64,000 bases of DNA, from the NCBI RefSeq assembly GCF_024502345.1, contig NZ_JALDNN010000001.1; one strand, 5' to 3'. The stretch comes from Escherichia coli. GTDB lineage: Bacteria; Pseudomonadota; Gammaproteobacteria; Enterobacterales; Enterobacteriaceae. Below are positions 12,964 to 52,730 of this stretch, piece by piece. Each line of letters starts with the position of its first letter. Position 1 is the first letter of the stretch. The translations under genes were made by a program, and so were the position numbers. Below the pieces are notes generated by a model. It had not been told where the DNA came from, ran no database searches, and saw only the letters and a program-made list of their open reading frames with translations.

Positions 12964-15900
12964 TTAACCGCTAATCTGCTCCATCGCCTGCAAAATACGC
13001 TTATCTGAAATCGGATAAGGCGTACCAAGTTGTTGAGCGAAGTAACTAACGCGCAACTCTTCTATCATCCAACGGATCTCTTTCACGTCTTCATCCTCAC
13101 GACGTGCGGGCGGCAGTTTGTTGATCCATTGCTGCCACGCCTGCTGGACGTTTTCGACTTTCAGCATCTGCGCACGGTCGCGATGTGGATCAACCGCCAG
13201 TTTTTCCAGCCGTTTTTCAATCGCCTGCAAATATCGCAGCGTGTCGCCCAGCCGTTTGAAGCCGTTACCAGTGACAAAACCGCGATATACCAACCCGCCC
13301 ATCTGCGCTTTAATGTCAGAAAGCCCCAGCGCCATGGTCATATCCACCCGCCCTTTCAGACGTTTGTTGATATTGAACACTGCCGTAAGGATTTGCTCGA
13401 CCTGCTTCGCAATATCCACCACCGTGTCGTTCAGTTCGGCACGCACTTTTTCATGCAGCGCAGCAAAGCCTTCTTCCGTCCAGACCGGGCCACCATTGGC
13501 GTCGATCAATTTATCCACACCGCAGGAGATACAGTCGTCGATCAGCTCCAGCACTTTGCCATACGGGTTAAAGTACAGTCCCAGCTTGGCTTTGTTCGGT
13601 AACTTTTCATGTAAATATTTGATTGGCGATGGAATATTCAGCAGCAGTAGACGGCGAAGACCGTTCCACATTGCCTGCTTTTGCTCCAGCGGGTTATCAA
13701 ACAGTTTGATCGCCACACTGTCGCGCTCATCCACCAGCGCCGGCCACGCCTTCACTTTGTAGTTGCCACGCTTCTGTTCGTAGCTTTCCGGCAGCTGACC
13801 AAAACTCCAGATATGTAAGCCGCTCTGCTCGATACCGTCATCCGCCACCGCAGATAGCGTTTCCTGCACTTTGCCTTTCAGCGCATCTTTCAGATCTTGT
13901 AGCGAGCGCCCTTCTTTTAGCTTCTTGTTTTTGTCATCCACCACGCGGAAGGTAATTTTCAGGTGATCAGGCACCTGATCCCAGTGCCAGTCTTCGCGGT
14001 CAACGGTAACGCCGGTCATCCGCCGTAACTCGCGCTCAAGGCTGTCGAGCAACGGTAACTCCAGCGGTTTGACGCGGCCTAAAAACGCTTCGGCATAGTT
14101 TGGCGCGGGTACAAAATTACGGCGTACCGGTTTCGGCAACGATTTAATCAGAGCAATCACCAGTTCGCGGCGCAGACCGGGGATCTGCCATTCAAACCCG
14201 CTTTCCTCAACCTGGTTAAGTAACGGCAGCGGAATATGTACGGTCACACCGTCAGCATCCGCGCCGGGCTCAAACTGATAGCTCAAACGCAGCTTGAGAT
14301 TGCCCTGATGCCAGAAGTTCGGGTAATCCAGCTTGCTGATTTTTTCTGCGCCCTCTTTGATCAACATGCTTTTTTCAAAGTTGAGCAAATCAGGGGTTTC
14401 GCGGCTGACTTTTTTCCACCAGCTGTCGAAGTGACGAGCGGAGATTACATCGTGGCTGATGCGCTGGTCGTAGAACTCAAACAACGTTTCGTCATCAACC
14501 AGAATATCGCGGCGACGTGATTTGTGTTCCAGTTCTTCCACTTCAGCCCGCAGTTTCAGGTTTTCACGGAAGAATGCGTGACGCGTCTGCCAGTCACCTT
14601 CCACCAGCGCATGGCGAATAAAGAGTTCACGACATAACGCCGGATCGATCTGGCTGTAGTTGACCTTGCGCGCGGCAACAATCGGCAAACCATAAACAGT
14701 GACTTTTTCCGTTGCCATCACCGCGCCCTGCGCCCGTTCCCAGTGCGGTTCGCTGTAGGTACGTTTAATCAAATGCTGAGCGACAGGCTCCACCCATTCC
14801 GGGTCGATACGCGCAGCAATGCGCCCCCACAGGCGGCTGGTTTCTACCAGTTCCGCCACCATTACCCATTTCGGCGGTTTTTTGAATAAACCAGAACCGG
14901 GGAAGATGGAGAAACGCGCGTTACGTGCGCCGGTATATTCTTGTTTATCGGCATCTTTCATGCCGATATGGGATAGTAAACCCGTCAGCAACGCAATGTG
15001 AATTTCGCGATACTCCGCCGGTTCGCTGTTAACCGGAATGCCAAGTTCTTTCACCACCTGACGCAACTGGGTGTAGATATCCTGCCATTCGCGCACGCGC
15101 AGATAGTTGAGATAATCGGTACGACACAGGCGACGGAAGGCGTTTGAAGAAAGCGCCTTTTGCTGCTCGCCAAGATAATTCCACAGATTTACAAACGCGA
15201 GGAAGTCGGATTCTTTGTCGTGGAAGCGACGATGTTTTTCGTCCGATGCCTGCTGTTTGTCCATCGGCCGCTCACGCGGGTCCTGAATGGAGAGCGCGGA
15301 CGTGATAATCATCGCCTCACGCACGCAGCCATGTTTCTGCGCTTCCAGCACCATACGCGCCAGACGTGGGTCGACAGGCAACTGCGAGAGCTGGCGACCG
15401 AGCGGCGTCAGTTTATAGGCGCTGGCCTGTTCATCCGTGGTGATCGCGCCCAGCTCTTCGAGCAGACGCACGCCATCCTGGATATTGCGTTTATCCGGTG
15501 CTTCGACAAACGGGAACGCAGCGATATCGCCCAGCCCCAGCGCGGTCATCTGCAAAATAACCGAGGCCAGGTTGGTACGCAGAATCTCCGGATCGGTAAA
15601 CTCCGGGCGCGAGAGGAAATCGTCTTCGGAATAGAGACGAATACAGATCCCTTCGGACACACGACCACAACGGCCTTTACGCTGATTGGCAGACGCCTGT
15701 GAAATGGGTTCAATCGGCAAACGCTGCACTTTGGTGCGATAGCTGTAGCGGCTGATACGCGCCGTACCGGGGTCGATAACGTATTTAATCCCCGGTACAG
15801 TCAGCGAGGTTTCCGCGACGTTGGTCGCCAGCACAATGCGTCGCCCGCTGTGCGACTGGAACACGCGGTTCTGTTCGCTATTCGAAAGCCGCGCATAAAG

Positions 15901-16866
15901 CGGCAAGATTTCGGTATGGCGTAAGTTCAGCTTGTTCAGCGCATCGGCGGTATCGCGAATTTCCCGCTCGCCGCTCATAAAGATCAGAATGTCGCCAGGG
16001 CTTTCCTGGCTCAGTTCGTCTACGGCGTCAAAAATCGCCTGCAACTGATCGCGCTCGGTGTCATCGGCTTCTTCAACAATCGGGCGATAGCGCACTTCCA
16101 CCGGATAGGTCCGACCGGAGACTTCGATAATCGGCGCATTATTAAAGTGGCGAGAAAAGCGTTCCGGGTCGATAGTCGCGGAAGTGATAATGATTTTTAG
16201 GTCAGGACGCCGCGGCAGCAACTCTTTCAAATAGCCGAGCAGAAAATCGATATTCAGGCTGCGTTCGTGTGCTTCGTCAATAATGATGGTGTCGTACTGC
16301 ATCAGCAGGCGGTCTTGCTGGATCTCCGCCAGCAGGATACCGTCGGTCATCAGCTTGACCATCGTGTTATCACTTACGTGATCGCTGAAACGCACTTTGT
16401 AACCGATGCAACCGCCTGGCTCCGTTTTCAGCTCTTCCGCAATACGGTTCGCCACCGTTCTTGCCGCCAGACGACGCGGCTGGGTATGGCCGATCAGTCC
16501 TTTAATCCCGCGCCCCAGCTCCATACAGATTTTCGGTAGCTGAGTCGTTTTACCGGAACCGGTTTCCCCGGCGACGATCACCACCTGGTGATCACGAATC
16601 GCTTCGAGAATGTCCTGTTTTTTCTGACTAACCGGCAAATTGTCCGGATAAGTGATTTCCGGACGTGCCGCTTCACGCAGCAGGACTTTCCCTGCCGCCT
16701 GGTCAATCTCTTTCGCCATCTCCTGGAAAATGGCCTGTTGTGCATCAGGATTTTTAACCTTCTTCACACCGTGCAGACGGCGAGAAAAACGCTGTCTGTC
16801 GCGCAGCATCAGCGAATCCAGCCGCTGCTGCAAGACTGTAAAGGTCAATTTTTGTTGTTCTGTCAT
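12964..16866 (-). CDS. hrpA: ATP-dependent RNA helicase HrpA (DEAH box)
   Basis: 1300 aa; GETGSGKTTQ Walker A and DEAH motifs plus HA2/OB domains. Confidence 0.9.
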   Translation of the reverse strand: MTEQQKLTFTVLQQRLDSLMLRDRQRFSRRLHGVKKVKNPDAQQAIFQEMAKEIDQAAGKVLLREAARPEITYPDNLPVSQKKQDILEAIRDHQVVIVAGETGSGKTTQLPKICMELGRGIKGLIGHTQPRRLAARTVANRIAEELKTEPGGCIGYKVRFSDHVSDNTMVKLMTDGILLAEIQQDRLLMQYDTIIIDEAHERSLNIDFLLGYLKELLPRRPDLKIIITSATIDPERFSRHFNNAPIIEVSGRTYPVEVRYRPIVEEADDTERDQLQAIFDAVDELSQESPGDILIFMSGEREIRDTADALNKLNLRHTEILPLYARLSNSEQNRVFQSHSGRRIVLATNVAETSLTVPGIKYVIDPGTARISRYSYRTKVQRLPIEPISQASANQRKGRCGRVSEGICIRLYSEDDFLSRPEFTDPEILRTNLASVILQMTALGLGDIAAFPFVEAPDKRNIQDGVRLLEELGAITTDEQASAYKLTPLGRQLSQLPVDPRLARMVLEAQKHGCVREAMIITSALSIQDPRERPMDKQQASDEKHRRFHDKESDFLAFVNLWNYLGEQQKALSSNAFRRLCRTDYLNYLRVREWQDIYTQLRQVVKELGIPVNSEPAEYREIHIALLTGLLSHIGMKDADKQEYTGARNARFSIFPGSGLFKKPPKWVMVAELVETSRLWGRIAARIDPEWVEPVAQHLIKRTYSEPHWERAQGAVMATEKVTVYGLPIVAARKVNYSQIDPALCRELFIRHALVEGDWQTRHAFFRENLKLRAEVEELEHKSRRRDILVDDETLFEFYDQRISHDVISARHFDSWWKKVSRETPDLLNFEKSMLIKEGAEKISKLDYPNFWHQGNLKLRLSYQFEPGADADGVTVHIPLPLLNQVEESGFEWQIPGLRRELVIALIKSLPKPVRRNFVPAPNYAEAFLGRVKPLELPLLDSLERELRRMTGVTVDREDWHWDQVPDHLKITFRVVDDKNKKLKEGRSLQDLKDALKGKVQETLSAVADDGIEQSGLHIWSFGQLPESYEQKRGNYKVKAWPALVDERDSVAIKLFDNPLEQKQAMWNGLRRLLLLNIPSPIKYLHEKLPNKAKLGLYFNPYGKVLELIDDCISCGVDKLIDANGGPVWTEEGFAALHEKVRAELNDTVVDIAKQVEQILTAVFNINKRLKGRVDMTMALGLSDIKAQMGGLVYRGFVTGNGFKRLGDTLRYLQAIEKRLEKLAVDPHRDRAQMLKVENVQQAWQQWINKLPPARREDEDVKEIRWMIEELRVSYFAQQLGTPYPISDKRILQAMEQISG

Positions 16867-17722: not shown

Positions 17723-20637
<2,915 letters not shown>

Positions 20638-21694
20638 GGCTTTGTTGAATAAATCGAACTTTTGCTGAGTTGAAGGATCAGATCACGTATCTTCCCGACA
20701 ACGCAGACCGTTCCGTGGCAAAGCAAAAGTTCAAAATCACCAACTGGCCCACCTACAATAAAGCCCTCATCAACCGTGGCTCCATAACTTTCTGGCTGGA
20801 TGATGAAGCTATTCAGGCCTGGTATGAGTCAGCAACACCTTCTTCACGAGGCAGACCTCAGCGCTATTCTGACCTTGCCATCACGACTGTGCTGGTCATT
20901 AAACGCGTATTCAGGCTGACCCTGCGCGCTGCGCAGGGCTTTATTGATTCCATTTTTTCTCTGATGAACGTTCCGCTACGCTGCCCGGATTACAGCTGTG
21001 TCAGCAGGCGGGCAAAGTCGGTTAATGTCAGTTTCAAAACGCCCACCCGGGGTGAAATCGCACACCTGGTAATTGATTCCACCGGGCTGAAGGTCTTCGG
21101 TGAAGGCGAGTGGAAAGTCAAAAAGCATGGCCAGGAACGCCGCCGTATCTGGCGTAAGCTGCATCTCGCCGTTGACAGTAAAACACATGAAATCATCTGC
21201 GCTGACCTGTCGCTGAACAACGTTACGGACTCAGAGGCCTTCCCCGGGTTAATCCGGCAAACCCACCGGAAAATCAGGTCAGCCGCCGCCGATGGCGCTT
21301 ACGATACCCGGCTATGTCACGATGAACTGCGGCGTAAGAAAATCAGCGCGCTTATCCCTCCCCGAAAAGGTGCGGGTTACTGGCCCGGTGAATATGCAGA
21401 CCGTAACCGTGCAGTGGCTAATCAGCGAATGACCGGGAGTAATGCGCGGTGGAAATGGACAACAGATTACAACCGTCGCTCGATAGCGGAAACGGCGATG
21501 TACCGGGTAAAACAGCTGTTCGGGGGTTCACTGACACTGCGTGACTACGATGGTCAGGTTGCAGAGGCTATGGCCCTGGTACGAGCGCTGAACAAAATGA
21601 CGAAAGCAGGTATGCCTGAAAGCGTGCGTATTGCCTGAAAACACAACCCGCTACGGGGGAGACTTACCCGAAATCTGATTTATTCAACAAAGCC
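20638..21694 (+). mobile_element. IS903-group (IS5 family) insertion sequence, 1057 bp
   Basis: Perfect 18-bp terminal inverted repeats GGCTTTGTTGAATAAATC at 20638..20655 and 21677..21694; a single transposase ORF; the flanking 9-mers ACGAGATGT and GAGTGATGC do not match, so there is no target-site duplication. Confidence 0.9.
20670..21638 (+). CDS. IS903-type DDE transposase
   Basis: Translation ...WPTYNKALINRGSITFWLDDEAIQAWYESATPSSRGRPQRYSDLAITTVLVIKRVFRLTLRAAQGF... matches the remembered IS903/IS102 transposase; the true start may be internal to the listed ORF. Confidence 0.85.
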   Translation: MKDQITYLPDNADRSVAKQKFKITNWPTYNKALINRGSITFWLDDEAIQAWYESATPSSRGRPQRYSDLAITTVLVIKRVFRLTLRAAQGFIDSIFSLMNVPLRCPDYSCVSRRAKSVNVSFKTPTRGEIAHLVIDSTGLKVFGEGEWKVKKHGQERRRIWRKLHLAVDSKTHEIICADLSLNNVTDSEAFPGLIRQTHRKIRSAAADGAYDTRLCHDELRRKKISALIPPRKGAGYWPGEYADRNRAVANQRMTGSNARWKWTTDYNRRSIAETAMYRVKQLFGGSLTLRDYDGQVAEAMALVRALNKMTKAGMPESVRIA

Positions 21695-22038
21695 GAGTGA
21701 TGCGTTACTTTCCGGTAAAAATAAAAAGGTAAATAGAGCGCAATATCGGAAATAACATCGCCAGTTTCATTCAAAATCGCCCCCAGACGTGTTTGCTGAT
21801 TGCACTCACGCGCCAACATGCCATCCAGCGCATTGAGCGCCATACGGATAAAAAGCACGATGGGCAATAGCAAAAAGAGGATGGGTTGTGCCACCAACAC
21901 CAACAGCAATCCGGTAAAAAGAGAAAGCGCCAGTGCCGTAAGAGTGATGTGATTCGCTGTAACGTGGTGCTTATAAAGCCAAAACATCGTCGGCCTTAAC
22001 AGCGACTGAAAGAGCGGTTTTATCTGGTAGAGCGTCAT
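21695..22038 (-). pseudogene. ynbA: CDP-alcohol phosphatidyltransferase YnbA, N-terminal ~114 codons only, 3' end replaced by the IS
   Basis: MTLYQIKPLFQSLLRPTMFWLYKHH... membrane protein; the ORF runs into the IS right end, against a remembered 201-aa full length. Confidence 0.5.
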
Positions 22039-22336
22039 TTATCATTCCGTGATATTCAGTTTGCTCTATGGTGCATCAATTGTGATGGCGGAGATATCAC
22101 AACGCGGAGCATCAACGTAAATTCGGAATATATCAAGATGTGGTGGATGGTTTTCCTACACATCTGTTTGATTACCGACTGGATGTCAGTGAGATACCAT
22201 CGATCACTGTACGAATCAATGAATCCATTGCCTTTTCCCTGATTATCCAGCCGCAAATCCTGGCCTTAAACATATGCACTCCATGCCATTAAAAAAGAAA
22301 CAAAAGGGAAATGCATCTTTCCCTTTTGTATATTCG

Positions 22337-23197
22337 TTATTCTCGCGAAATACCATCCAACGTAGACAACACTTCCTCAGAAAGATGCAATTTTTCAGCA
22401 GCCATATTCTCCCGTAAATGCGCAACAGAAGACGTCCCTGGGATCAGCAAAATATTCGGTGAACGTTGTAACAGCCACGCCAGCGCCACCTGCATGGGTG
22501 TTGCACCCAGGCTCGCAGCAACATCGGAAAGTGTGGACGATTGCAGCGGTGTAAAGCCCCCGAGCGGGAAGAACGGCACGTAGGCAATGCCATCGTGGGC
22601 CAAAGCATCAATCATTGCATCATCAGCACGGTGCGCGATGTTGTATTCGTTTTGCACACAGACAATTTCGGCAATCTTGCGCGCCTCTGCAACCTGCGTC
22701 GGTGTGACATTGCTCAGGCCAATATGTTTTACCAGGCCTTGTTGTTGCATCTCTGCCAGCACGGTCAGGCTGGCCTCAATCGATCCTTCCGCTGGGCCAT
22801 GACCATCCCCCATCATAACGCGCAGGTTAACCACATCCAGCACGTCCAGCCCGAGATTACGTAGATTATCGTGCACCGCTTTTTGCAGCTCTGCCGGAGA
22901 AAATGCGGGCAACCAGGAAGCGTCCTCTCCACGCCGCGCACCAATTTTAGTGACAATTGTCAGGTCGTCAGAGTAAGGATAAAGCGCTTCGCGGATAATC
23001 TGATTGGTGACGTGCGGACCATAAAAGTCGCTGGTATCAATGTGAGTGACGCCCAATGCCAGCGCCTCACGCAGCACAGTTATAGCGACGTGGCGATCTC
23101 TTGGGGGACCAAAAACCCCAGGACCTGCCAGTTGCATCGCGCCATAACCAAGACGGTTAACGGATTTTGTACCGAGAGTAAATGTATTGCTGCTCAT
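22337..23197 (-). CDS. ydbC: Aldo-keto reductase YdbC
   Basis: 286 aa, MSSNTFTLGTKSVNRLGYGAMQLAG..., AKR family; followed by a hairpin plus T-run near 22296..22330. Confidence 0.85.
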   Translation of the reverse strand: MSSNTFTLGTKSVNRLGYGAMQLAGPGVFGPPRDRHVAITVLREALALGVTHIDTSDFYGPHVTNQIIREALYPYSDDLTIVTKIGARRGEDASWLPAFSPAELQKAVHDNLRNLGLDVLDVVNLRVMMGDGHGPAEGSIEASLTVLAEMQQQGLVKHIGLSNVTPTQVAEARKIAEIVCVQNEYNIAHRADDAMIDALAHDGIAYVPFFPLGGFTPLQSSTLSDVAASLGATPMQVALAWLLQRSPNILLIPGTSSVAHLRENMAAEKLHLSEEVLSTLDGISRE

Positions 23198-23425
23198 CGC
23201 ACCCTGCCCTGTAATAAAACGGATTGAGAAAAATCAGTATAGAAACGAAAAGAGATAAATAATGCGAAGGCGTAAACAAGATTACTGGATGAGTTGCTCT
23301 ATTGTCCTGAAAAACACAAAACAAAACGCGTCAAGTACCGCATCCGGCAATAAAAAACCGCAACCTGTATAGCGTTGCGGTTTAGGTATCACATGCTAAA
23401 AATTAGAATGTTCAGTATCTGGACG

Positions 23426-24016
23426 TTACTGTTTCGGTCGCAGATTCTCATCAAATACCAGACGTTTCCTGTTCGGTTCAACTTCCCGCAATGGCTCAAC
23501 TTGATGCAACGTCTGCTTACAACGAGTCACCAGCACCTGATACTCATGCGTACCCTGCTTTTTCCATGCCAGCTCCTGCTCACTGAGTTCACGAATCGCT
23601 TTCGCCGGGCTGCCGACAATCAGGTAATTGGCAGGCATTTCTGCTTTGGCTTTCACAAATGCGGATGCGCCAACAATGCTGTTCTCGCCAATCACCGCGC
23701 CGTCCATCACTACCGCGTTCATTCCCACTAATGCATTGCGGCGGATAATGCAACCATGAAGGATAGCGCTATGACCAATATGCCCATCTTCTTCCACGAC
23801 AGTATCCTGTTCGGGAAAACCGTGCATAACGCAATTATCCTGAATGTTCGCGCCATCTTTCACTACGATACGACCAAAATCGCCACGCAGATTGGCATTT
23901 GGCCCAACGTAAACGCCCTTGCCGAGAATAACATCGCCGATCAATACCGCTGTCGGATGGACAAAACTCTCTTCTGGCACAACCGGAGTCAGACCATCTA
24001 TCTGGTAAATTGGCAT
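23426..24016 (-). CDS. paaY: Hexapeptide-repeat thioesterase PaaY, apparently intact
   Basis: 196 aa, [34 protein letters not shown]... Confidence 0.85.
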
Positions 24017-24555
24017 AACGCCTCCTGTTCAATATTCAAACCGCCAAAACGTTGAAAATACAGGCTTCCCGGCGCAGGCAGTTCACCGACCGAGGTTTCA
24101 CCTTTTTCACTAACGAACGCTAAAGCAGCAGGCGCTACGCGCTGATAAATGTTGATACACAGCTGACGCGCCGTATGCCCTGCCCAGTGCGCCGGAAGCA
24201 ACTCCTCTGGCAACAATGGGTCTTTAAGGACGACACGGCGATAAAAATGGATCAGTAAAAGCTGAATATGAAATGCACGCTCCGGGGTTAACTCGTCTGC
24301 TGCCTCTTTTAACAGCGGCACCAGCGGGCGGAATGACTGAATAAAGGTTTCGTACATGGCATTTTGTTCAGTTAAATGCCAGCACTCTTCCACTCTGGCA
24401 CGCAGTGCTGCACGAGAAAGCGCCAGTGGTATTTGCGCTTCAAAACAAATCACGTTATCCGCCAGAAGGGCATTATTTAGCGCATTACGTGCGGCGGGAC
24501 GGTTAAGGGTCAGCAACAATACTTGTTGCTGACGGCTGACGATCAGTTCGCTCAT
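23998..24555 (-). pseudogene. Deletion-fusion remnant: first ~31 codons of paaF joined in frame to the C-terminal ~150 codons of paaX
   Basis: Translation MSELIVSRQQQVLLLTLNRPAARNALNNALL (PaaF N-terminus) continues directly into ADNVICFEAQIPLALSRAALRARVEECWHL... (PaaX C-terminal half). Confidence 0.6.
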
Positions 24556-25193
24556 GCCATCCCCTTCGCGTCAAAGTCAACCACCACATCGCTGGTCAGC
24601 GGCAGTGCCTGGCAACTCAACACATAGCCTGCGGCCAGTTCATCCGGTTCCAGACTGTAATTGGTTTCCATCGCCACTTTGCCACGCAGCACTTTGCATT
24701 TGCAGGTCGCACAGACGCCGCCTTTGCAGGCATAGGGCAGATCAGCCCCCTGGCGCAATGCCGCATCGAGAATGCTTTCATCGTCGGCATTAAGCACGAT
24801 TTCCCGATCCCGCCCATCCTGACGTACAGTCACTTTTTGTCCGTCACTTTGCACGTTAACGCTACGTTTGACGCGCGTGCCAGGCGTATTAAACCGCTCC
24901 AGATGAATGGTTTTATCTGGCATTCCCAGTGCTTTTAAGGCGGCTTCCGTCTCATCCATCATCGCCGCCGGACCACAAATAAATGCCTCATCATAAAGAC
25001 GAAAATTAATGAGCGAGGCCCCAAGTGACTGTAATTTTTCACCGTCAATACGCCCGTGAAGCAGATCGCTGTCGAGGGTTTCCTGACTGAAAATGCACAA
25101 CAACTGTAAACGCTGAGGATATTTGTCTTTCAGGTCTGCCAGTGCCTGGCGAAACATCATGCTCTGGCTGGTACGGTTACCGTAGATCAGGGT
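24552..25193 (-). pseudogene. paaE: paaE remnant, C-terminal ~200 codons (NAD-binding and 2Fe-2S ferredoxin domains), N-terminus deleted
   Basis: MMFRQALADLKDKYPQRLQLL...CKGGVCATCKCKV... matches the PaaE C-terminus; PaaE-like sequence ([11 protein letters not shown]) extends upstream to about 25193 and then stops. Confidence 0.6.
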
Positions 25194-25956
25194 GATGCCC
25201 GCACAAAACCAGCGACATGCTCTGCAACTGGCTTGTGCAGGCGGCGGTAGCCTTGCGGGAACGCTGGTGACGGCTGATCCGCAAATTGCGCGTCAGTTTA
25301 TTGCCGACGCGGCACGTACGCATGGGCGAATTCAGATCCTCAATGAAGAATCGGCAAAAGAATCCACCGGGCATGGCTCCCCACTGCCACAACTGTTACA
25401 TGGTGGGCCTGGTCGCGCAGGAGGCGGTGAAGAATTAGGTGGTTTACGAGCGGTGAAACATTACATGCAGCGAACCGCTGTTCAGGGTAGTCCGACGATG
25501 CTTGCCGCTATCAGTAAACAGTGGGTGCGCGGTGCGAAAGTCGAAGAAGATCGTATTCATCCGTTCCGCAAATATTTTGAGGAGCTGCAACCAGGCGACA
25601 GCCTGTTGACTCCCCGCCGCACAATGACAGAGGCCGATATTGTTAACTTTGCTTGCCTCAGCGGCGATCATTTCTATGCACATATGGATAAAATTGCTGC
25701 TGCCGAATCTATTTTTGGTGAGCGTGTGGTACATGGATATTTTGTGCTTTCTGCGGCTGCGGGTCTGTTTGTCGATGCCGGTGTCGGTCCGGTCATAGCT
25801 AACTACGGGCTGGAAAACTTGCGTTTTATCGAACCCGTAAAACCAGGCGATACCATCCAGGTGCGTCTCACCTGTAAGCGCAAGACGCTGAAAAAACAGC
25901 GTAGCGCAGAAGAAAAACCAACAGGTGTGGTGGAATGGGCGGTATGGGCACGCTAA
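25192..25956 (+). pseudogene. paaZ: paaZ remnant: end of the aldehyde-dehydrogenase domain plus the MaoC hotdog domain, without N-terminus or native C-terminal end
   Basis: [35 protein letters not shown]... [48 protein letters not shown]... corresponds to PaaZ from about residue 430. Confidence 0.6.
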
Positions 25957-47327: not shown

Positions 47328-48236
47328 TTAACTTTGCAGATAGCCGCATTCTCGCCGGAATTGCGTGATTAATGACGCGGTCAGTGGTGTCTGGCGACTA
47401 TCACGCCGCTGAATCAAATAATAGGCCGCTTTCGGTAAAATTTCGCTAACCGGCAACATCACCAGCCCCTGTCCATGCAAGGGATCGCAGCCCATTTCTT
47501 CAGGCAGTATGCTGAGAAAATCGCTTTTTGCCACCAGACTGATACAGGCTGAGAACGTCTCGCAGACTACACCGACCTGTGGCGTTTGCGCCTGATCGTC
47601 AAGCAATTCACTCAACTGTTTGTAGTAACTGCCGTGTGGCGTCGGCATTGTCCAGCTGTAATCCAGTAACTGTTTGATCGAACGGGCACCAATGGCGGGG
47701 TGTCCCGGGCGGCAAAAGATCGCGAATTGCTTTTCCAGTAATTTCTCAAAAGTAAATTCGTGGTCGTACGGTCCCTGATAATAGGTATTGATGGTGAAAT
47801 CCAATTCTCCCTGACGCAATTCATTAATCATCGACACCAGTTGCCCTTCCATAATGCGTACTTTTACCTGCGGATGCTGCTGATGAAAACGAGATATGAC
47901 AGCTGGCATCAGACTGCGGGAAATACTGGCCCCCATGCCGATATTAATCTGCCCTGCCAGTTGCCCTTGTCGTTGGCGAATATCCTCTTGGGCTGCGCGC
48001 AGCTCTTCAAGAATAAGACTGGCGTGCTGATAAAAACTTTCACCGGCATCAGTTAACGTCACGCCTTTACTACGGCGAAAAAAGAGTTGCGCCGCTAATC
48101 CTTCTTCCAGCTCCTGAATAGATTTACTCCGTGCCGGTTGCGACATATTCAACATTCGGCTCGCTCCGCGAATGCTGCCCTGACGAGCCACTTCAACAAA
48201 AGCCCGAATTTGATGAATTTTTACCTGAAAAGCCAT
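47328..48236 (-). CDS. abgR: LysR-family regulator of the abg operon
   Basis: 302 aa, MAFQVKIHQIRAFVEVARQGSIRGASRMLNMSQPARSKSIQELEE; divergent from abgA. Confidence 0.85.
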   Translation of the reverse strand: MAFQVKIHQIRAFVEVARQGSIRGASRMLNMSQPARSKSIQELEEGLAAQLFFRRSKGVTLTDAGESFYQHASLILEELRAAQEDIRQRQGQLAGQINIGMGASISRSLMPAVISRFHQQHPQVKVRIMEGQLVSMINELRQGELDFTINTYYQGPYDHEFTFEKLLEKQFAIFCRPGHPAIGARSIKQLLDYSWTMPTPHGSYYKQLSELLDDQAQTPQVGVVCETFSACISLVAKSDFLSILPEEMGCDPLHGQGLVMLPVSEILPKAAYYLIQRRDSRQTPLTASLITQFRRECGYLQS

Positions 48237-48411: not shown

Positions 48412-49722
48412 ATGGAGTCTTTGAATCAATTTGTTAATTCGCTTGCCCCAAAATTATCGCACTGGCGACGTGATTTTCATCACTATGCAGAGTCTGGCTG
48501 GGTGGAATTCCGCACTGCCACCCTTGTTGCGGAAGAATTGCAGCAGCTCGGCTATTCACTGGCGCTGGGCCGCGAAGTAGTTAATGAAAGTAGCCGGATG
48601 GGACTACCTGATGAACTCACTCTACAACGCGAATTCGAGCGCGCTCGTCAACAGGGTGCGCTAGCACAATGGATTGCGGCTTTTGAAGGTGGTTTCACTG
48701 GTATCGTCGCCACCCTGGATACCGGTCGCCCCGGTCCGGTGATGGCTTTCCGTGTCGATATGGACGCGCTGGATCTCAGTGAAGAGCAGGATGTCAGCCA
48801 TCGCCCCTACCGCGACGGTTTTGCGTCATGTAACGCCGGAATGATGCATGCCTGTGGTCATGATGGGCATACCGCCATTGGGCTTGGGCTGGCGCATACC
48901 CTTAAACAGTTCGAGTCCGGACTACATGGCATCATCAAACTGATTTTTCAACCTGCAGAAGAAGGTACGCGTGGCGCGCGGGCGATGGTCGATGCAGGTG
49001 TAGTGGATGATGTTGATTATTTTACTGCCGTGCACATTGGCACTGGCGTACCTGCGGGCACCGTGGTGTGCGGCAGTGATAATTTTATGGCAACCACCAA
49101 ATTTGACGCGCACTTCACCGGGACCGCCGCTCACGCAGGCGCAAAACCAGAAGACGGTCACAATGCCTTGTTGGCGGCAGCACAAGCAACTCTTGCACTG
49201 CATGCAATCGCCCCGCACAGCGAAGGCGCTTCCAGAGTAAACGTGGGCGTTATGCAGGCAGGAAGCGGTCGTAATGTTGTTCCTGCCTCGGCGTTGCTGA
49301 AAGTGGAAACACGCGGGGCCAGCGACGTCATTAATCAATATGTTTTTGACCGTGCACAACAAGCGATTCAGGGCGCAGCAACCATGTATGGTGTCGGCGT
49401 TGAAATTCGTCTGATGGGTGCAGCTACCGCCAGTTCTCCTTCGCCGCAATGGGTCGCATGGTTGCAAAGTCAGGCGGCTCAGGTCGCGGGGGTCAATCAG
49501 GCCATTGAACGTGTCGAAGCGCCTGCGGGTTCCGAAGATGCCACATTAATGATGGCCCGCGTGCAGCAACATCAAGGGCAAGCCTCCTACATGGTGTTTG
49601 GCACACAGCTGGCGGCAGGTCATCACAACGAAAAATTCGATTTTGACGAGCAGGTTCTCGCTATTGCCGTCGAAACGCTGGCGCGCACCGCGCTCAATTT
49701 TCCCTGGACGCGAGGTATCTGA
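48412..49722 (+). CDS. abgA: p-Aminobenzoyl-glutamate hydrolase subunit A (M20 peptidase)
   Basis: 436 aa from the internal Met, MESLNQFVNSLAPKLSHWRRDFHHYAESGW...; its stop overlaps the abgB start (TGATG). Confidence 0.85.
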   Translation: MESLNQFVNSLAPKLSHWRRDFHHYAESGWVEFRTATLVAEELQQLGYSLALGREVVNESSRMGLPDELTLQREFERARQQGALAQWIAAFEGGFTGIVATLDTGRPGPVMAFRVDMDALDLSEEQDVSHRPYRDGFASCNAGMMHACGHDGHTAIGLGLAHTLKQFESGLHGIIKLIFQPAEEGTRGARAMVDAGVVDDVDYFTAVHIGTGVPAGTVVCGSDNFMATTKFDAHFTGTAAHAGAKPEDGHNALLAAAQATLALHAIAPHSEGASRVNVGVMQAGSGRNVVPASALLKVETRGASDVINQYVFDRAQQAIQGAATMYGVGVEIRLMGAATASSPSPQWVAWLQSQAAQVAGVNQAIERVEAPAGSEDATLMMARVQQHQGQASYMVFGTQLAAGHHNEKFDFDEQVLAIAVETLARTALNFPWTRGI

Positions 49723-51167
49723 TGCAGGAAATCTATCGTTTTATCGACGATGCGATTGAAGCCGATCGCCAACGTTATACCGATATTGCCGATCAAATCT
49801 GGGATCATCCAGAAACACGTTTTGAAGAGTTCTGGTCAGCGGAGCATCTGGCTTCGGCGCTGGAATCTGCAGGCTTCACCGTTACCCGCAACGTAGGCAA
49901 TATCCCAAATGCCTTTATTGCTTCGTTTGGTCAAGGCAAACCGGTTATCGCCCTGCTGGGAGAATATGACGCCCTGGCAGGTTTAAGTCAGCAAGCTGGT
50001 TGCGCGCAACCTACATCCGCGACGCCCGGTGAAAATGGTCACGGTTGCGGACACAATTTGCTGGGAACCGCCGCCTTTGCCGCTGCAATAGCCGTCAAGA
50101 AATGGCTGGAACAATATGGGCAAGGCGGCACAGTGAGCTTTTATGGTTGTCCTGGCGAAGAAGGCGGCTCGGGTAAAACGTTCATGGTCCGCGAGGGGGT
50201 ATTTGATGATGTGGATGCGGCACTCACCTGGCACCCGGAAGCCTTTGCCGGTATGTTCAATACCCGCACGCTGGCAAACATTCAGGCATCATGGCGCTTT
50301 AAAGGGATCGCAGCACATGCCGCGAATTCCCCTCATTTGGGACGCAGCGCCCTTGATGCCGTAACGTTGATGACCACTGGCACCAACTTCCTCAACGAAC
50401 ATATTATTGAAAAAGCGCGCGTACACTATGCCATCACAAATAGTGGCGGGATCTCGCCCAACGTGGTCCAGGCGCAGGCAGAAGTGCTTTATCTTATCCG
50501 CGCCCCCGAAATGACCGACGTGCAGCATATTTATGATCGAGTCGCCAAAATCGCCGAAGGTGCGGCATTGATGACCGAAACCACGGTTGAATGCCGCTTC
50601 GACAAAGCCTGTTCCAGTTAGCTCCCGAGTCGCACCTTAGAAAATGCCATGTACCAGGCCCTATCCCATTTTGGTACCCCGGAATGGAACTCCGAAGAAC
50701 TGGCTTTTGCGAAACAAATTCAGGCTACGCTCACCCCCAACGATCGGCAAAACAGTCTGAATAATATCGCCGCAACCGGTGGCGAAAACGGCAAGGCTTT
50801 TGCACTACGTCATCGTGAAACGGTACTGGCGAATGAAGTCGCTCCATATGCCGCCACCGATAACGTGCTTGCGGCATCGACTGATGTCGGCGACGTCAGT
50901 TGGAAACTGCCTGTTGCCCAGTGTTTCAGCCCCTGTTTTGCCGTCGGTACACCGCTACATACGTGGCAACTGGTTAGCCAGGGGCGAACATCTATTGCTC
51001 ATAAAGGAATGCTGCTGGCGGCGAAAACTATGGCAGCAACCACAGTCAATCTCTTCCTTGATTCAGGGCTATTGCAAGAATGCCAACAAGAGCATCAGCA
51101 AGTAACGGACACGCAACCGTACCACTGCCCTATCCCGAAAAACGTGACACCGTCACCTTTAAAATAA
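49722..51167 (+). pseudogene. abgB: p-Aminobenzoyl-glutamate hydrolase subunit B reading frame with a single in-frame TAG at codon 300 (50619..50621)
   Basis: ORFs 49722..50621 and 50649..51167 are in the same frame; 299 + stop + 9 + 172 codons gives 481, the remembered AbgB length; protein-like sequence continues through the TAG. Confidence 0.7.
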
Positions 51168-51203: not shown

Positions 51204-52730
51204 ATGAGTATGTCATCCATACCGTCGTCCTCCCAATCCGGGAAGCTCTATGGCTGGGTCGAAAGAATTGGTAACAAGGTTCCCCATCCTTTTTTGCTCT
51301 TTATCTATTTGATAATCGTACTCATGGTGACGACGGCAATTTTGTCAGCCTTTGGCGTCAGTGCGAAAAACCCGACCGATGGTACGCCGGTGGTGGTGAA
51401 AAACCTGCTCAGTGTGGAAGGATTACACTGGTTTTTACCCAATGTGATTAAAAACTTTAGCGGTTTTGCTCCACTTGGAGCGATCCTGGCGCTGGTTTTA
51501 GGTGCCGGCCTAGCGGAGCGCGTCGGCTTACTGCCAGCGCTAATGGTTAAAATGGCATCGCATGTTAATGCCCGCTACGCCAGTTATATGGTGCTGTTTA
51601 TTGCTTTTTTCAGCCACATTTCTTCCGATGCGGCGTTAGTGATCATGCCACCGATGGGTGCGCTGATTTTTCTGGCGGTGGGCAGGCATCCAGTTGCAGG
51701 TTTACTGGCTGCCATTGCAGGCGTAGGTTGCGGCTTTACGGCTAATTTACTGATTGTCACAACCGACGTGTTGCTGTCGGGGATCAGCACGGAAGCGGCG
51801 GCTGCGTTCAATCCGCAAATGCACGTCAGTGTAATTGATAACTGGTATTTTATGGCCAGCTCCGTAGTCGTACTGACGATTGTTGGCGGCCTGATAACCG
51901 ACAAAATCATCGAGCCACGGTTAGGTCAATGGCAGGGAAACAGCGATGAGAAACTGCAGACATTGACCGAAAGTCAGCGTTTTGGTTTACGCATAGCAGG
52001 TGTCGTATCGCTACTTTTTATTGCTGCGATTGCGCTGATGGTGATCCCGGAAAACGGGATATTGCGCGATCCGATTAATCACACCGTGATGCCATCACCC
52101 TTTATTAAAGGTATCGTGCCACTGATCATTCTTTTTTTCTTTGTTGTCTCGCTGGCTTATGGCATCGCTACCCGCACAATTCGACGTCAGGCGGATTTAC
52201 CGCATTTAATGATTGAACCGATGAAAGAGATGGCGGGATTTATCGTGATGGTTTTTCCCCTCGCCCAATTTGTCGCCATGTTTAACTGGAGCAACATGGG
52301 GAAATTCATCGCCGTGGGGCTGACCGATATACTGGAAAGTTCAGGGCTTAGTGGCATACCGGCGTTTGTCGGTCTGGCGTTGCTTTCCTCTTTCTTATGC
52401 ATGTTTATTGCCAGCGGTTCCGCAATCTGGTCGATTCTGGCCCCCATTTTCGTACCAATGTTTATGCTACTTGGCTTTCACCCGGCATTTGCGCAAATCC
52501 TCTTTCGTATTGCCGACTCATCCGTATTGCCTTTAGCGCCGGTATCTCCTTTTGTTCCACTGTTTCTTGGATTCCTGCAACGCTACAAACCAGACGCGAA
52601 ACTGGGTACTTACTATTCGTTAGTCTTGCCCTATCCGCTTATCTTTTTGGTGGTATGGCTGCTGATGTTGCTGGCGTGGTATCTTGTTGGTCTGCCGATA
52701 GGTCCGGGGATTTACCCACGTTTGTCTTAA
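51204..52730 (+). CDS. abgT: p-Aminobenzoyl-glutamate transporter (AbgT family)
   Basis: 508 aa from the third codon of the listed ORF; polytopic membrane protein. Confidence 0.85.

Follow-up and report, generated by a model that had tools for sequence, protein, structure and literature searches.

In the strain analysed here, abgB is very probably a genuine, vertically inherited pseudogene, in which the Tyr300 codon TAT was turned into the amber stop TAG and from which loss of the hydrolase is expected. We put the probability of this reading at roughly 93%. The lesion lies in a 64,000-nt stretch of Escherichia coli DNA, which was analysed as a whole and is hereafter called the window. Based on its identity to the genes annotated in complete E. 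coli genomes, the product of abgB was assigned as the B subunit of p-aminobenzoyl-glutamate hydrolase. The locus and its neighbours comprise the following features.

47328..48236, minus strand: abgR, intact; LysR-type regulator, divergently transcribed
48412..49722, plus strand: abgA, intact; partner subunit, whose stop overlaps the abgB start codon
49722..51167, plus strand: abgB pseudogene; 481-codon frame broken at codon 300, with gapless 99.4% nucleotide identity to annotated abgB
49722..50621, plus strand: N-terminal ORF of 299 codons plus TAG; the probable translated product
50619..50621, plus strand: premature amber TAG; Tyr300 TAT is ancestral, with T-to-G at 50621
50628..50630, plus strand: linked substitution N303S (AAT to AGT), with A-to-G at 50629, 8 bp 3' of the lesion
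50649..51167, plus strand: C-terminal remnant; 172-codon ORF whose start is the internal Met310
51204..52730, plus strand: abgT, intact; p-aminobenzoyl-glutamate transporter with 0 amino-acid differences from the reference

The raw sequence around the stop reads TCC AGT TAG CTC CCG AGT, with T-A-G at positions 50619-50621, and the translation of 49722-51167 contains codon 300 as its sole internal stop, the normal stop following codon 481. Raw letters and translation agree in this on the single in-frame TAG that had been reported in the preliminary description. The two same-frame ORFs are separated by nothing but this TAG, and their lengths add up exactly as had been calculated from the coordinates (299+1+9+172 = 481). 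Comparison with related strains gave TAT (Tyr) as the sense codon at this site, since it occupied codon 300 in every intact abgB allele read base by base. The window gene is colinear with the intact alleles and has 0 indels relative to them, the lesion being a single T-to-G transversion.

The surroundings of the gene are undisturbed. The order smrA, abgR, abgA, abgB, abgT, ogt, fnr is the usual one, and the gene-by-gene comparison with the references bore out the earlier statement that abgA, abgT and abgR are intact, all three being full length and free of internal stops. In the block 25940-64000, abgB was the only gene that this comparison found to be less than full length; in the alignment of the same block to NZ_OW968111.1 of E. 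coli, 313 mismatches and 0 gaps were counted. Given that the alignment to E. coli references is gapless over 38 kb and that the neighbouring genes are full length, a frameshift and a rearrangement are excluded, as had already been supposed. The nucleotide identity of the window abgB to annotated abgB genes was 99.0-99.4%, and the complete RefSeq E. coli genomes closest to the window were 99.2-99.4% identical to it. Together with the Pfam M20 and M20_dimer domains and the colinear arrangement of abgR and abgA-abgB-abgT, this identity places the gene in the abgB family and in its operon context.

The same allele was recovered from other sources. The exact 299-aa product was present on 8 contigs from independent samples and datasets, and was found in the Logan runs ERR14375843, ERR3153747 and ERR2855845, in the ENA metagenome assemblies ERZ19693311, ERZ28659642 and ERZ10621112 and in the NCBI assembly GCA_050022275.1; the ENA assembly ERZ27268294 is a further carrier of the abgB TAG. 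Over 20.9 kb GCA_050022275.1 shows no difference from the window; its contig breaks off within the window's IS element, and it probably represents the same lineage or strain. The ERR14375843 contig (L005) has no differences from the window along 13.7 kb, and a Mu-like prophage adjoins its abgR, so that it must come from an isolate separate from that of the window. The prophage occupies L005:1-7226, immediately upstream of abgR, and encodes a transposase, an AAA ATPase, GemA, Mor and Gp27. Two further carriers, L007 and L008, show 161-163 differences from the window over 20,900 positions (about 0.8%) and yet have both TAG and N303S, and a third abgB haplotype (L015) has the same pair. Thus, at least three abgB haplotypes carry the TAG. 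N303S accompanied it in all carriers and was seen in no intact allele examined. The occurrence of the same TAG in independent samples and diverged backgrounds implies that the allele is real and inherited, not an artefact, and it appears to be old enough, or recombined enough, to occupy several backgrounds.

The Y300* allele is nevertheless rare. When 61 nt with the stop at their centre were searched against RefSeq, the segment was found in 4178 complete E. coli genomes, with a best match of 59/61; therefore, none of these 4178 genomes has both G at 50621 and G at 50629. A 26-mer bearing the TAG had 0 matches in the GTDB species representative genomes and 0 in the metagenome collection, where its wild-type counterpart had 50. 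The best match of 59/61 and the TAT of the intact alleles also speak against homologs that would normally end at codon 300. Another substitution, R139S (CGC to AGC, window position 50136, codon 139), was observed in the window-type Y300* alleles and in alleles with a different stop, L306*, and was absent from the Y300* allele of L015; this distribution points to recombination among abgB alleles. The pair Y300*/N303S could serve as a lineage marker.

In M20 enzymes, the lid domain is an insertion that divides the catalytic domain into an N-terminal and a C-terminal segment. In the intact AbgB ortholog, Pfam places Peptidase_M20 (PF01546) at residues 78-308 and M20_dimer (PF07687) at 191-280. 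Intact AbgB aligns to HmrA (3RAM) and to Xaa-Arg dipeptidase over residues 8-311 and then again over 370-460, and the latter part, which lies entirely past codon 300, includes the conserved motifs STDxGxVS and HT. The stop costs this M20 metallopeptidase subunit its C-terminal third, 181 residues whose alignment partner is the conserved end of the catalytic domain. The most likely course is that, with the amber stop created at Tyr300 (TAT) by the T-to-G transversion, translation would end after 299 residues. Such a product would retain the dimerisation (lid) domain but only the N-terminal part of the catalytic domain, whose completion requires the missing C-terminal ~180 residues; abgR, abgA and abgT are still intact for now. 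p-Aminobenzoyl-glutamate hydrolase is a Mn2+-dependent alpha2-beta2 heterotetramer of AbgA and the 481-aa AbgB (PMC5082436). As the active enzyme is this AbgA2-AbgB2 heterotetramer, loss of activity is expected in the strain. Hence Y300* is most likely a null allele of the hydrolase, and we infer from the sequence that enzyme activity is lost, that translation does not restart at Met310 and that the stop is not suppressed. The substrate is a breakdown product of folate, and we predict that the carrier strain cannot recover p-aminobenzoate from it.

Loss of abgB is common in E. coli. The gene was missing from 1225 of 5426 complete genomes (23%), and several other null alleles were identified, namely Q250* and Q268* (both CAG to TAG), L306* (TTA to TAA; carried by E. 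coli TA054 and its relatives) and, in other E. coli, a deletion in which abgA and the first 773 nt (the 5' half) of abgB are gone. These alleles were located on contigs L012-L014, L016 and L018-L021. In E. coli IAI1 abgT is annotated as frameshifted. Among intact alleles from metagenomes and references, the pN/pS ratio was 0.22 for abgB, 0.11 for abgA, 0.11 for abgR and 0.04 for abgT. In the window, 7 of the 13 differences of abgB from the reference were amino-acid changing, the corresponding figure for the other genes being 61 of 342 (Fisher p = 0.005). We considered whether selection had been relaxed specifically in the TAG lineage and rejected this, since intact abgB alleles also have an elevated pN/pS; the amino-acid excess therefore belongs to the gene and not to the lineage. 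A mutational hot spot at codons 300-306 was likewise rejected as the result of ascertainment bias, because L306* was found via the cluster of 172-aa ORFs and the other stops lie at codons 250 and 268. The existence of at least four separate nonsense alleles, the deletions, the 23% absence and a pN/pS of abgB that is the highest in the operon support the view that the abg operon is a dispensable accessory function which has been lost repeatedly and independently in E. coli. The Y300* allele probably persists because E. coli can do without the operon, on which constraint is weak. A literature search revealed nothing relevant on abgB as a pseudogene.

A second interrupted gene in the window bears on the interpretation of the stop.

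17723-19039, minus strand: ynbD; codon 60 (18860-18862) is TAG, against TGG (Trp) in references; no indels

The remark that ynbD repeats the pattern of abgB proved accurate: its frame is broken by one TAG only, at codon 60, in place of the TGG of the references. Complete RefSeq E. coli genomes have ynbD with TGG and annotated as intact. The ynbD TAG was found in one independent assembly (L026, SRR8240975), which belongs to a different, more diverged strain. The 341-aa ynbD fragment turned out to be misleading as a proxy for this TAG, given that most contigs with the exact product have TGG and only L026 has TAG. By its sequence, ynbD is a second, independent point-nonsense pseudogene in the window.

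Three other explanations of the abgB stop were weighed. The preliminary description had allowed for either a point nonsense mutation or a sequencing error, and of these two the former stood, TAT having become TAG with 0 indels, while the latter was contradicted by the presence of the TAG in independent assemblies. If the stop were a sequencing or assembly error, the true codon would be TAT and abgB would be intact. A single-base difference is the commonest type of assembly error, and several low-coverage metagenome contigs do contain spurious-looking indels in abg genes. However, the TAG always occurs together with N303S, in independently sequenced samples and in three haplotype backgrounds, and the otherwise identical carrier with the Mu-like prophage at abgR is a separate isolate; the chance that an error explains the stop is vanishingly small. 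It is also extremely unlikely that abgB has become a functional split gene, in which the 299-aa piece and a separately started 172-aa piece (from Met310) would reassemble into an active subunit. The break does fall just past the lid domain (M20_dimer ends at 280), where split proteins sometimes complement, and L306* of a second lineage, six codons away, leaves the same 172-aa ORF. This proximity, however, is an effect of how L306* was ascertained, as described above, and the nulls at 250 and 268 leave different fragments. Moreover, residues 300-309 would be lost, and no Shine-Dalgarno motif was found 5' of the internal ATG at 50649 (upstream sequence CCTTAGAAAATGCC-ATG), so the 172-aa remnant is unlikely to be translated on its own.

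Readthrough of the TAG, through either an amber-suppressor tRNA of the lineage or leakiness of the context, would allow some full-length AbgB and YnbD to be made, and we regard it as very unlikely. The two point-nonsense lesions of the window are of the amber type, as an amber-suppressing background would tolerate, and the downstream frame of abgB is still open in diverged carriers. Suppression, if it did occur, would account for the survival of the abgB amber allele on at least three diverged haplotypes, where it has not decayed further. Against this, two TAGs out of two carry little weight, as the probability of such an outcome by chance is about 1 in 4 (TAT can give TAA or TAG, and TGG can give TAG or TGA), and the single sampled carrier of the ynbD TAG is the more diverged strain mentioned above. 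In none of the carriers examined had the 172-codon frame been closed, but so small a number of substitutions would be expected to leave it open even under neutrality, so its state is no argument for function. No tRNA genes (0) were found within the 64-kb window. The stop is not a programmed readthrough or recoding site, since orthologs do not conserve it: it was absent from the 4178 complete E. coli genomes, and its 26-mer had 0 matches in the metagenome collection and in the GTDB representatives. The other abgB nulls include a TAA stop and a deletion, which fits plain decay.

Several features elsewhere in the window were recorded in addition to the inherited abgB pseudogene.

12964-16866, minus strand: hrpA
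20638-21694: IS903-like (IS5-family) element of 1057 bp, bounded by imperfect terminal inverted repeats of 33 nt; its transposase ORF occupies 20670-21638
21694-25944: patchwork of deletions

In comparison with two otherwise close references, hrpA had 73-80 nucleotide differences that change only 3-5 amino acids, which suggests a divergent segment brought in by recombination, with strong purifying selection acting on it. The IS903-like element is the only IS element in the 64 kb. This, and the fact that the named carriers of related alleles are E. coli, argued against a Shigella origin, which had been suspected from the distance to the complete RefSeq E. coli genomes and from the several dead genes in the window. 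The element truncates the 5' end of ynbC, and ynbB and part of ynbA are missing beside it; a look-up of the truncated ynbC product gave no record. The patchwork of deletions lacks ydbD, and all that is left of the paa phenylacetate operon is paaY, the 3' part of paaX and 3' fragments of paaE and paaZ. tynA has lost its 5' half, the junction lying near 25940. The contig from SRR24000611 (L081) has the same paaE, paaZ and tynA junctions as the window but has kept paaF-paaX, which indicates that the deletions accumulated stepwise.

Compared with known systems, the window gene corresponds to abgB of K-12 (b1337), situated in the abgABT operon with abgR: the locus, the synteny (smrA-abgR / abgA-abgB-abgT-ogt-fnr) and the length of 481 codons are the same. 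Unlike the K-12 gene, it has TAG for TAT at codon 300, N303S and R139S. HmrA (3RAM) and the Xaa-Arg dipeptidase PM20D2 (7YH4) are M20D-type amidohydrolases with solved structures and the two-domain M20 layout of AbgB, although they are only distant homologs (E = 1e-34 to 1e-27) and, in contrast to AbgB, are not heteromeric. The other abgB null alleles of E. coli are, like Y300*, independent loss lesions with intact neighbours, and those that are nonsense alleles result from a single base change without indels. They differ from it in position and lineage, and Q268* is common (354 index blocks) whereas Y300* is rare (8 contigs). In annotation, abgB of this strain is better described as a pseudogene with an internal stop than as two ORFs. 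It is a standard internal-stop pseudogene in a well-characterised operon, of an already known kind that annotation pipelines routinely flag.
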